A stretch of DNA of 64,000 bases, taken from Candidatus Limnocylindria bacterium. Lineage in GTDB: Bacteria > Chloroflexota > Limnocylindria > P2-11E. The position numbers were made by a program, and so were the translations under genes. This document shows, piece by piece, positions 43,759 through 46,703 of this stretch. Every line of letters begins with the position of its first letter. Position 1 is the first letter of the stretch. The DNA lies in contig JBHEML010000004.1 in the NCBI GenBank assembly GCA_046262615.1, forward strand, positions 5,596 through 69,595. Reading direction: 5' to 3'. The notes beneath the pieces are model-generated. The model did no database searches and had not been told where the DNA came from. It saw nothing but the letters and a program-made list of their open reading frames with translations.

Positions 43759-44265
43759 TCAGCGCGCGCCGCTGCGAGGGCGGCCGGCCGCCGGCCGAGG
43801 TGACCCGGTGGCGGCTGCGAGCCGCCACGGGGTGTCCGCGGGCAACGCTTCCCGAAGCAGCGGCTCCAGCGTGACGATGTAGCGCGCCAGCCGCGCGGCG
43901 ACTTCGTCCCGCACGCGTTCATCGAGAACGCGGAGCGGCACGCTCTCCCAGATCCGCGCCCATCCGCGATCCCACTCCTCCAGTCGCACGTCCGGCCCCA
44001 GGCCGCGGTGGATCGCGCGCTGGTGGCCGCGGAAGGCGCCGAGGAGCCGCTCGTTCGTGAGCGGGTCAGCCTCGAAGTGCAGGCCAAGCTCCAAGAGCGA
44101 CTGGCGCCGGCGGAGCCAGCACTCGTAGTGGAGCGCGCGGTTGCCGTACCAGAACTGCACCAGCGAGGAGCCCGCGCTCTGCCGCGGGCCAGACAGTGCC
44201 GCGGGCAACAGCGGCAGCAGCGCCGGCCCGACGCCGCCCAGAAAGGAACGCGAGGAGAGCGTCAC
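43759..44265 (-). CDS. hypothetical protein
   Basis: 168 aa, high GC3, downstream of the GNAT gene on the same strand. No confident family assignment. Confidence 0.55.
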   Translation of the reverse strand: MTLSSRSFLGGVGPALLPLLPAALSGPRQSAGSSLVQFWYGNRALHYECWLRRRQSLLELGLHFEADPLTNERLLGAFRGHQRAIHRGLGPDVRLEEWDRGWARIWESVPLRVLDERVRDEVAARLARYIVTLEPLLREALPADTPWRLAAATGSPRPAAGRPRSGAR

Positions 44266-45769: not shown

Positions 45770-46043
45770 TCCTCGGTAGCTCAGCGGTAGAGCAGGCGGC
45801 TGTCGATGGCAGCCCTCTGGGGAAACCCAGGGGTGTAACTGGGTGAATTGACGGGAACCCTAAAGCGCGCAAGCGCCATGGCGATCCGCAGCCAAGCCCG
45901 GAGAAACGCTCCGGGAAGGTTCAGAGACTATGCGCCCGGCACCTAAGACCGCACGGGTGATGGTGAAGAGATAGTCCGTGCCCGGGGGAAATCCCGGGGT
46001 TCATGTAACCGCTTGGTCGGAGGTTCGAATCCTCCCCGAGGAG
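45770..46043 (+). tRNA. tRNA-Asn (anticodon GUU) interrupted by a group I intron. Exons are 45770-45803 and 46006-46043.
   Basis: Joined exons give a perfect 72-nt cloverleaf: acceptor UCCUCGG/CCGAGGA, D-arm GCUC-AGCGGUA-GAGC, anticodon stem GGCGG/CCGCU, loop CU-GUU-AA, T-arm GGAGG-UUCGAAU-CCUCC, discriminator G73. CCA not encoded. Confidence 0.9.
45804..46005 (+). ncRNA. group I intron (small IC3/Azoarcus-like, ORF-less, 202 nt)
   Basis: 5' exon ends in U paired to G (P1 GGCUGU 45798-803 / GCAGCC 45809-14). Last intron nt is G (46005). P2-P9 can all be drawn. Core CAGAGACUA (45922-30) pairs with UAGUC (45972-76). Confidence 0.88.
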
Positions 46044-46046
46044 CAC

Positions 46047-46078
46047 GATCGGCACGCACGGGCGTGCCGATCACTTTC
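46047..46078 (+). terminator. hairpin after tRNA-Asn (candidate intrinsic terminator)
   Basis: Perfect 11-bp stem GATCGGCACGC/GCGTGCCGATC with 4-nt loop (46047-46072), followed by ACTTTCG. The U-tract is short. Confidence 0.4.
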
Positions 46079-46085
46079 GATGTGA

Positions 46086-46703
46086 ATGAATGACCTGAGC
46101 GCCGCCGAGATGCGCCTTCTCCGGCAGATGCGCACTCCGGAGCGGGTCCAGGAGTACCTCGACGGGCTGACCTACAACGTCGAGACGCATGGCGAGACGC
46201 TGCGGTCGCCGCGCCGCGTCATGCGCGATCGCACGGCGCACTGCGCGGAGGGTGCATTCCTCGCGGCGGCCGCGTTCCGCGTGCACGGCAGGTCTCCGCT
46301 GCTGGTCGATCTCGAGTCGATCCGTGACGACGACCACGTGCTGGCCGTCTTCCGCGAACGGGGCAAATGGGGCGCGGTCGCGACCTCGAAGTTCGCCGGT
46401 CTTCGCTACCGTGCTCCCGTCTACCGCACCTTGCGCGAGCTGGTGATGTCGTACTTCGAGCAGTACTACAACTGGGACGGCGAGCGGACGCTTCGCGCCT
46501 ACTCGCGAGCGGTCTCGCTCGCGCGTTTCGACCGCATCGGCTGGATGACCGCCGAGGACGACCTCTGGCCGATCGTCGAGCACCTCGAACGCATCCCGCA
46601 CATCCCGTTGATGGACGGCGCCAGCGCGCGGCGCCTGCCTCGCCTCGATGCGCGTTCGTACCGCTCGGGCCTGGTGGGTGCGCCCCGAGCAGGACACCAC
46701 TGA
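46086..46703 (+). CDS. hypothetical protein, possibly transglutaminase-like/papain-fold (Cys...His pattern)
   Basis: TAHCAEGAFLAAAAFRVHG...DDDHVLAVFRERGKWGAVATS resembles the Cys and His/Asp segments of transglutaminase-like folds. Pattern-level inference only. Confidence 0.55.
   Translation: MNDLSAAEMRLLRQMRTPERVQEYLDGLTYNVETHGETLRSPRRVMRDRTAHCAEGAFLAAAAFRVHGRSPLLVDLESIRDDDHVLAVFRERGKWGAVATSKFAGLRYRAPVYRTLRELVMSYFEQYYNWDGERTLRAYSRAVSLARFDRIGWMTAEDDLWPIVEHLERIPHIPLMDGASARRLPRLDARSYRSGLVGAPRAGHH

Follow-up and report, generated by a model that had tools for sequence, protein, structure and literature searches.

Whether a group I intron may lie within the anticodon of a bacterial tRNA-Asn gene, and whether such a host and insertion site are new, are the questions raised by positions 45770-46043 (+) of the window, by which we mean the whole stretch of 64,000 nucleotides that was analyzed. 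In this region, which belongs to the soil bacterium Candidatus Limnocylindria, a tRNA-Asn(GUU) gene is split at U35/U36 by a 202-nt group I intron. Based on sequence comparisons, we are highly confident that the gene is interrupted by a functional, ORF-less ribozyme of the Azoarcus type (IC3) belonging to the 'Asn.4Ug' class, a host and site that had already been catalogued in 2020 and that recur commonly among uncultured bacteria. The coordinates of the features are listed in Table 1.

Table 1. Features of the split tRNA-Asn gene, its intron and the neighboring genes (canonical pairs and double changes refer to the 28-sequence alignment)
Feature	Position	Strand	Description
168-aa hypothetical protein gene	43759-44265	-	Flanks tRNA-Asn
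GNAT acetyltransferase ORF, 344 aa	44282-45316	-	Between the 168-aa gene and tRNA-Asn
tRNA-Asn exon 1	45770..45803	+	nt 1-35: acceptor 5' strand, D arm, anticodon-stem 5' strand, C32 U33 G34 U35
Group I intron	45804..46005	+	202 nt, Azoarcus-like (IC3), without ORF; RF00028 match
P1 hairpin	45798..45814	+	G30-U35 plus C+1 (45798-45804) pairs with guide GGCAGCC (45808-45814)
P2 hairpin, GAAA tetraloop (L2)	45815..45832	+	98% canonical; 7/7 pairs with double changes
P3	45839-45845 with 45933-45939	+	99% canonical; encloses P4, P5, P5a and P6/P6a (45839..45939)
P4	45849-45855 / 45885-45890	+	100% canonical, invariant
P5/P5a	45859-45881	+	Receptor-like CCUAAAG...CAUGG plus GCAA hairpin; P5a 94% canonical, double changes
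P6/P6a	45891-45924	+	P6 100%, P6a 97% canonical; double changes in P6a
P7	45926-45930 with 45972-45976	+	GACUA with UAGUC; invariant in 28/28; pseudoknot with P3
P8/P8a	45940-45965	+	Within P7 (45926..45976); receptor-like CCUAAG...GAUGG; P8 100%, P8a 98% canonical, double changes
J7/9	45978-45980	+	GUG
P9 hairpin, GAAA loop	45981-45998	+	100% canonical, double changes
P9.0	G45978-U46004, U45979-A46003	+	Dinucleotide 5' of the omega-G pairs with the first 2 nt of J7/9
tRNA-Asn exon 2	46006..46043	+	U36 A37 A38, anticodon-stem 3' strand, variable loop, T arm, acceptor 3' strand, G73
205-aa ORF	46086-46703	+	Flanks tRNA-Asn

The split gene and its predicted spliced product

Exon 1 reads UCCUCGG-UA-GCUC-AGCGGUA-GAGC-A-GGCGG-CU-GU, its last base being 45803, and exon 2 reads U-AA-CCGCU-UGGUC-GGAGG-UUCGAAU-CCUCC-CCGAGGA-G, with CCA not being encoded. 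The intron between them begins with CGAUGGCAGCC... and ends with ...GGGGUUCAUG. The original prediction regarded the exon boundaries as unambiguous, and they may indeed be read directly from the sequence as ...GGCGG-CU-GU / CGAUGG...UUCAUG / U-AA-CCGCU (a slash marks a splice junction). Its placement of the intron inside the anticodon, between nt 35 and 36, is confirmed by the Rfam match described below and by the spliced product, since the joined exons (45770-45803 and 46006-46043) form a normal cloverleaf of 72 nt that ARAGORN identified as tRNA-Asn(gtt). The exact junction between U35 and U36 also bears out the view that the GUU anticodon is assembled only by splicing.

The split gene was seen neither by ARAGORN with default settings nor by the Rfam tRNA model, and was misread as tRNA-Tyr by ARAGORN with introns allowed. 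Exon 1 is kept in relatives, and the acceptor stem carries compensatory changes, which indicates that the tRNA is under selection. The presence of homologues in 16 related genomes and in further contigs rules out a chance resemblance or misassembly.

Directly 3' of the tRNA, positions 46044-46085 contain an 11-bp perfect inverted repeat, GAUCGGCACGC-ACGG-GCGUGCCGAUC, followed by ACUUUCG. A scan for promoter and terminator consensus sequences around the tRNA-Asn gene found nothing; the inverted repeat was not counted in the terminator scan because its U run is short.

Structure of the intron

The Rfam model Intron_gpI (RF00028) matched positions 45794-45998 over its full length (model positions 1-253) with a score of 70.2 bits (E 8.8e-16), the gathering score being 50. 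The match was reproduced in a scan of the whole genome, in which this intron was the sole match, with no other group I introns being found in the window's assembly. Helices were assigned by analogy with the Azoarcus tRNA-Ile intron, and a plain minimum-free-energy fold recovered P2, P3, P5a, P6a, P8, and P9 (z = -2.55). In an alignment of 28 sequences, which comprised 17 genome sequences (the window's own and 16 relatives) and 11 further contigs, P4, P5, P6, and P7 were invariant, compensatory double changes were carried by P2, P5a, P6a, P8, P8a, and P9, and canonical pairs accounted for 94-100% in P2-P9. By analogy, P7 would be the guanosine-binding helix.

P1 is formed by GGCUGUC and GGCAGCC, the 5' splice site (45803/45804) being marked by a U35·G wobble, and the minimum-free-energy fold of this segment has a value of -9.8 kcal/mol. 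Pairs in P1 were 89% canonical in the 28-sequence alignment, and U·G was present at the aligned splice-site position in 22 of the 28 sequences, the other six lacking it because of how the variable P1 loop was aligned. P1 had been suggested to sequester the anticodon and the 3' half of the anticodon stem before splicing; this holds for C32-U35 of the loop, but not for the stem, from which P1 takes G30-G31 of the 5' strand. At the other end of the intron, the tail UUCAUG terminates in the omega-G at 46005. This terminal G and the G/UAA junction were invariant in 17 aligned homologues as well as in the 28-sequence set, and the inner pair of P9.0 switches between U-A and C-G, being canonical in 25 of the 28 sequences.

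GAAA loops are present at 45822-45825 (P2) and 45988-45991 (P9). The motifs in P8 and P5, which we take to be receptor-like, were assigned by eye against the Azoarcus intron; the two loops probably dock into these motifs and thereby clamp the fold, as judged by analogy. The intron thus combines the features of group I, namely, an RF00028 score above the gathering score, U·G in P1, omega-G, and a covarying P3-P8 core with a P3/P7 pseudoknot, with those of subgroup IC3, namely, a length of 202 nt, a location in a tRNA anticodon loop, and predicted L2-P8 and L9-P5 tetraloop-receptor pairs, the docking of which we infer. No ORF was found within 45804-46005, and at 202 nt the intron is too short to encode a homing endonuclease.

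Proposed splicing pathway

We infer the splicing chemistry and the tertiary contacts from those of the Azoarcus and Tetrahymena introns. During the folding of the pre-tRNA, exon nucleotides G30-U35 would pair with the intron guide GGCAGCC to form P1, with the U35·G wobble marking the splice site, and a free guanosine bound in P7 would attack after U35. Held in place by the 2-bp P9.0, the terminal G (46005) would next occupy the guanosine site, and the 3'-OH of U35 would attack after 46005, which would join CUGU to UAA, create the GUU anticodon, and release the 202-nt intron with an added G. The sequencing runs found for the window are DNA metagenomes only.

Proteins are needed in vivo by many group I introns, and an intron that is real may likewise depend on a protein cofactor or an RNA chaperone for splicing in the cell. 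We consider such a dependence to be unlikely in the present case, against which stands the compact, GC-rich (62%) architecture of the Azoarcus type with two clamps and all core elements present. The Azoarcus intron is a robust self-splicer.

The original prediction also pointed to the order of queuosine modification at G34 relative to splicing. A search of the 84%-complete assembly for Tgt, using tblastn with an approximate E. coli query and two motif patterns, found none; this is a weak negative. Queuosine may be absent, in which case the question of order is moot in this organism. If Tgt exists, modification would more likely follow splicing, since U33-G34-U35, which Tgt recognizes, would be locked in P1 beforehand.

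Genomic context and distribution among relatives

The assembly to which the window belongs (G000) comprises 2.17 Mb in 229 contigs and is 83.9% complete. No other tRNA-Asn was found by ARAGORN among the 27 tRNAs of this assembly, in the missing 16% of which a second tRNA-Asn gene is possible, and, in the window's own genome, the two halves were all that a BLAST search with the spliced tRNA recovered. Homologues of a flanking protein are named Chloroflexota and Candidatus Limnocylindria. The 168-aa gene, which was matched in 27 loci by tblastn, and the 205-aa ORF flank tRNA-Asn in intron-bearing and intronless relatives alike, indicating that the tRNA-Asn locus is orthologous. Homologues of the GNAT ORF were not found by tblastn in the other related loci, except for a 23-residue fragment in contig L125, in a comparison limited by the extent of most related loci to approximately 1.5 kb on either side of the tRNA.

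The mapping of presence and absence by BLAST and the comparison of intronless alleles, both of which had been proposed with the original prediction, revealed a patchy intron at one syntenic locus. Full-length homologues of the split gene were detected in 16 of 60 related genomes, one of which belongs to a second family in the order, the others spanning eight genera of the host family. Intronless tRNA-Asn(GUU) genes were present in the other families of the class and also in eight genomes of the same family, with genera g6, g8, and g9 holding both states; the intronless alleles have the same flanking genes and occupy the same locus as the intron-bearing ones.

The lineages of the intron with its tRNA do not track genus labels in terms of identities or the tree, as exemplified by a difference of 25% between G004 and G033, both of g3, versus 9% between G010 (g9) and G016 (g8). 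This suggests that the interrupted gene has been exchanged within the family. Since a homing endonuclease is absent, the patchy distribution appears to reflect loss, the exchange of the whole interrupted gene, or both. Within single genus labels, we observed two intron-plus-tRNA lineages that were approximately 25% divergent, namely, G004/G019 versus G033/G025 in g3 and G034/G030 versus G006 in g5.

Contig L125 (NCBI JBBQYZ010000592.1) is 97% identical to 45770-46043, and its flanking proteins are 93-96% identical to those of the window. It is labeled Gemmatimonadales, which conflicts with the Limnocylindria names of the homologues. Its guide reads UGCCGCC in place of GGCAGCC, two substitutions by which the U33-A and C+1-G pairs of P1 are lost, and favors pairing with G27-C32 instead. 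This may reflect decay of the copy, an error, or an altered P1 register.

The substitutions in L125 weaken P1, and, thus, some copies may be decaying. If this were extended to the window, the split gene would be a relic, with functional tRNA-Asn coming from an intronless copy within the 16% that the assembly lacks; the 83.9% completeness of this metagenome-assembled genome, its 27 tRNAs by ARAGORN, and the intronless alleles in the same family may be cited in its favor. However, the ribozyme core is invariant, covariation across genera is seen both in the helices and in the tRNA acceptor stem, and the intronless alleles occupy the same syntenic locus, not a second one. Furthermore, the intron-bearing genomes, several of which are 91-95% complete, showed only the two halves and tRNA-Lys-like matches among the top-ranked matches listed, with some lower-identity matches being unassigned; the two tRNA-Lys-like matches that were checked were tRNA-Lys. 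We consequently regard a relic as very improbable and favor a functional split gene.

Prior description of the host and site

The original prediction did not recall tRNA-Asn(GUU) as a described host and tied its novelty to introns at tRNA-Asn 35/36 being neither catalogued nor common. Both points turned out otherwise. The seed alignment gpI.sto of Williams (2020; bioRxiv 10.1101/2020.01.27.920355) contains 'Pam37.Asn.4Ug'. The label 'Asn.4Ug' stands for tRNA-Asn as the host, insertion behind the 4th nucleotide of the anticodon loop, U(-1), and omega-G; the intron in the window, whose host is tRNA-Asn(GUU), has all of these features. The same alignment also has Wba81.Asp.4Ug, Mba143.Tyr.4Ug, and Mpe6.Lys.4Ug, and that work raised the number of tRNA intron classes from four classical ones to 21 (10.1101/2020.01.27.920355). 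Group I introns in the tRNA genes of Patescibacteria are also the subject of a 2025 preprint by Nakagawa and colleagues, which is cited in PMC12641178.

The class is also common. The core 17-mer GGAAGGTTCAGAGACTA exactly matched at least 119 public genome contigs in one-genome-per-species data, and 94 loci were resolved by reading junctions and by constrained splice enumeration. Among the matches listed, 71 of these 94 fit tRNA-Asn(GUU) 35/36 (TCC...CUGU/intron...G/UAA), mostly from Patescibacteria, Omnitrophota, and Planctomycetota, while the remaining resolved loci were mostly tRNA(CAU) 36/37, with a few tRNA-Asp(GUC) 35/36 or tRNA-Lys(CUU). Introns at tRNA-Asn 35/36 were found in Saccharibacteria, Paceibacterota, other Patescibacteria, Omnitrophota, Planctomycetota, MAGs of Gammaproteobacteria, and Limnocylindria.

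The same core was observed in tRNA-Asp(GUC) 35/36, tRNA-Lys(CUU) 36/37, and tRNA(CAU) 36/37 (L134, L178, and L069/L081/L106/L119, respectively), with L134 being from Campbellbacteria and L069/L081/L106/L119 from Isosphaeraceae (Planctomycetota). Asp.4Ug is in the Williams seed, the naming scheme of which also fits the Lys and CAU classes.

The proposal that bacterial group I introns had not been described at tRNA-Asn(GUU) 35/36 may draw on full-text searches, which returned no peer-reviewed description of tRNA-Asn as a host, and on the group I intron database used for validation by Williams (2020; 10.1101/2020.01.27.920355; reference 10 therein), which, according to that preprint, lists only four tRNA classes. 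With Pam37.Asn.4Ug catalogued and 71 of the 94 resolved contigs among the matches listed fitting the class, this proposal is almost certainly wrong. The intron is an ordinary, probably functional member of a catalogued class in what may be a new host lineage.

Related sequences with extra nucleotides between U33 and G34

Sixteen related sequences outside the window, which we call type B, have an insert of 4-10 nt (C...RYG) between U33 and G34. Nine are from genomes (G003, G004, G010, G016, G019, G023, G028, G030, and G034; loci L004-L012) and seven from metagenome contigs (L218, L235, L272, L294, L295, L304, and L312). The insert always lies directly after U33, with C as its first and G as its last nucleotide, and was CAUG in nine sequences, CACG and CGUG in two each, and CCACG, CCGUG, and CAAAACCGUG in one each. 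These sequences read GGCU-[C...G]-GU-NAAG-GGCAGCC, and their 3' junction is still G/UAACC. Their tRNA body resembles that of tRNA-Asn, with covariation in the acceptor stem. Among the top-ranked BLAST matches listed, type B genomes had only the two halves and tRNA-Lys-like matches, lower matches such as G023:C28 (2865-2923; 85% identity, query positions 7-65) and G030:C91 being unassigned.

A metagenome scan with AAGGGCAGCCCCTTGG yielded 120 matches, 115 of which were by chance and only five of which were introns. Look-ups via the conserved upstream gene yielded two new distinct type B sequences at three loci (L304, its near-duplicate L305, and L312), together with one type A sequence and one intronless allele.

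All single deletions in type B were scored with ARAGORN, which proved too permissive for this purpose; no single U/...G/ excision gave a 7-nt GUU loop. Several alternatives were rejected. Type B as tRNA(CAU), tRNA(CGU), or tRNA(CCU) with the splice in the insert was dismissed because this 'anticodon' varies among close relatives and the body stays Asn-like, and a 3' splice site upstream at GGG/GUU because that GU is unconserved (GAUU, GGUA). An anticodon loop of 5 or 11 nt would be non-functional, and the insert showed no covariation with the P5 receptor strand that would point to pairing between them.

The type B guide has an extra G (AAG-GGCAGCC), which was already contained in the pattern used to retrieve five of the type B contigs. 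The P1 fold places U33 in a U33·G wobble and pairs C+1 with the extra G, and this register has values of -2.0 to -9.2 kcal/mol versus -0.7 to -2.4 for a bulged ordinary register, the two being equal (-2.0) in three sequences. After the removal of the insert, the ordinary register becomes the best fold (-7.9 to -9.8), and GGCAGCC is complementary to the repaired GGCU-GU, such that it could serve as a template for ligating U33 to G34. The dinucleotide preceding the last G of the insert matches J7/9 in the same manner as that preceding the omega-G, with A-Y in the insert accompanying GU in J7/9 in 12 sequences and G-U accompanying AC in four (G010, G016, G028, and L218). These four G-U cases may represent one to three events, tree support there being only 32-71%, and the step from A-Y to G-U within the insert amounts to one A-to-G substitution.

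A tentative reading, which fits these features and which we consider possible but short of an even chance, is that the insert is a ribozyme-less mini-intron at 33/34 followed by a 2-nt micro-exon (G34 U35), that one ribozyme removes both the insert and itself, and that the state of the window's own copy arose secondarily by precise loss. The ribozyme would first cut after U33 at the U33·G wobble, with C+1 held by the extra guide G; the last G of the insert would then act as a surrogate omega-G in joining U33 to G34, and ordinary splicing at 35/36 would come after. In the tree, the basal lineages are of the ordinary type and type B is a derived clade. The window copy, G001, and L125 group next to L304, a type B contig, with support of 94-100, and, thus, the lineage of the window probably lost the insert precisely.

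Implications

The value of the window lies mainly in annotation. Since standard tRNA finders miss the split gene, genomes of this lineage seem to be without tRNA-Asn and score as less complete. The present results extend a catalogued class to a probable Limnocylindria (Chloroflexota) family and provide, at one syntenic locus, a clean series of presence and absence in which intron loss and exchange may be studied. Type B is the part that could matter more and the only part that merits further work. If one ribozyme excises both a 4-10-nt insert and itself, type B would represent a new means by which group I introns both tolerate and mend lesions in their host exon and a natural system for investigating splice-site choice.

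Comparison with known systems

The closest likeness is to Pam37.Asn.4Ug, with which the intron in the window shares the host, site, U(-1), omega-G, and the core motifs ...CAGAGACUA... and ...GAUAGUCC...; insertions lengthen the P1/P2 region of the seed member, whereas the window copy is minimal at 202 nt. The pre-tRNA-Ile(CAU) intron of Azoarcus sp. BH72 (approximately 205 nt, IC3) is similar in size and in its P1-P9 layout without peripheral domains, in the GAAA loops on P2 and P9, in the receptors of the CCUAAG/UAUGG type in P8 and P5, and in its location in the anticodon loop. However, its host is Ile2 (seed row 'Aol6.Ile2.5Ug') rather than Asn, its site is 36/37 rather than 35/36, and its P1 has 3 bp (CAU/GUG) rather than the 6-7 bp of the window, which include two anticodon-stem nucleotides.

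The cyanobacterial and plastid tRNA-Leu(UAA) introns (Leu.3Ug) and the tRNA-fMet introns (fMet.2Ug) belong to the same subgroup, lie in the anticodon loop, and are sporadic in occurrence, but interrupt other host tRNAs at 34/35 and 33/34, respectively. Some fMet introns encode a homing endonuclease, whereas the intron in the window is without an ORF. Type B resembles the tandem group I introns with mini-exons of fungal mitochondria in its very short exon pieces. Each of the fungal introns has its own ribozyme, whereas the 4-10-nt insert of type B would borrow the ribozyme that lies downstream.
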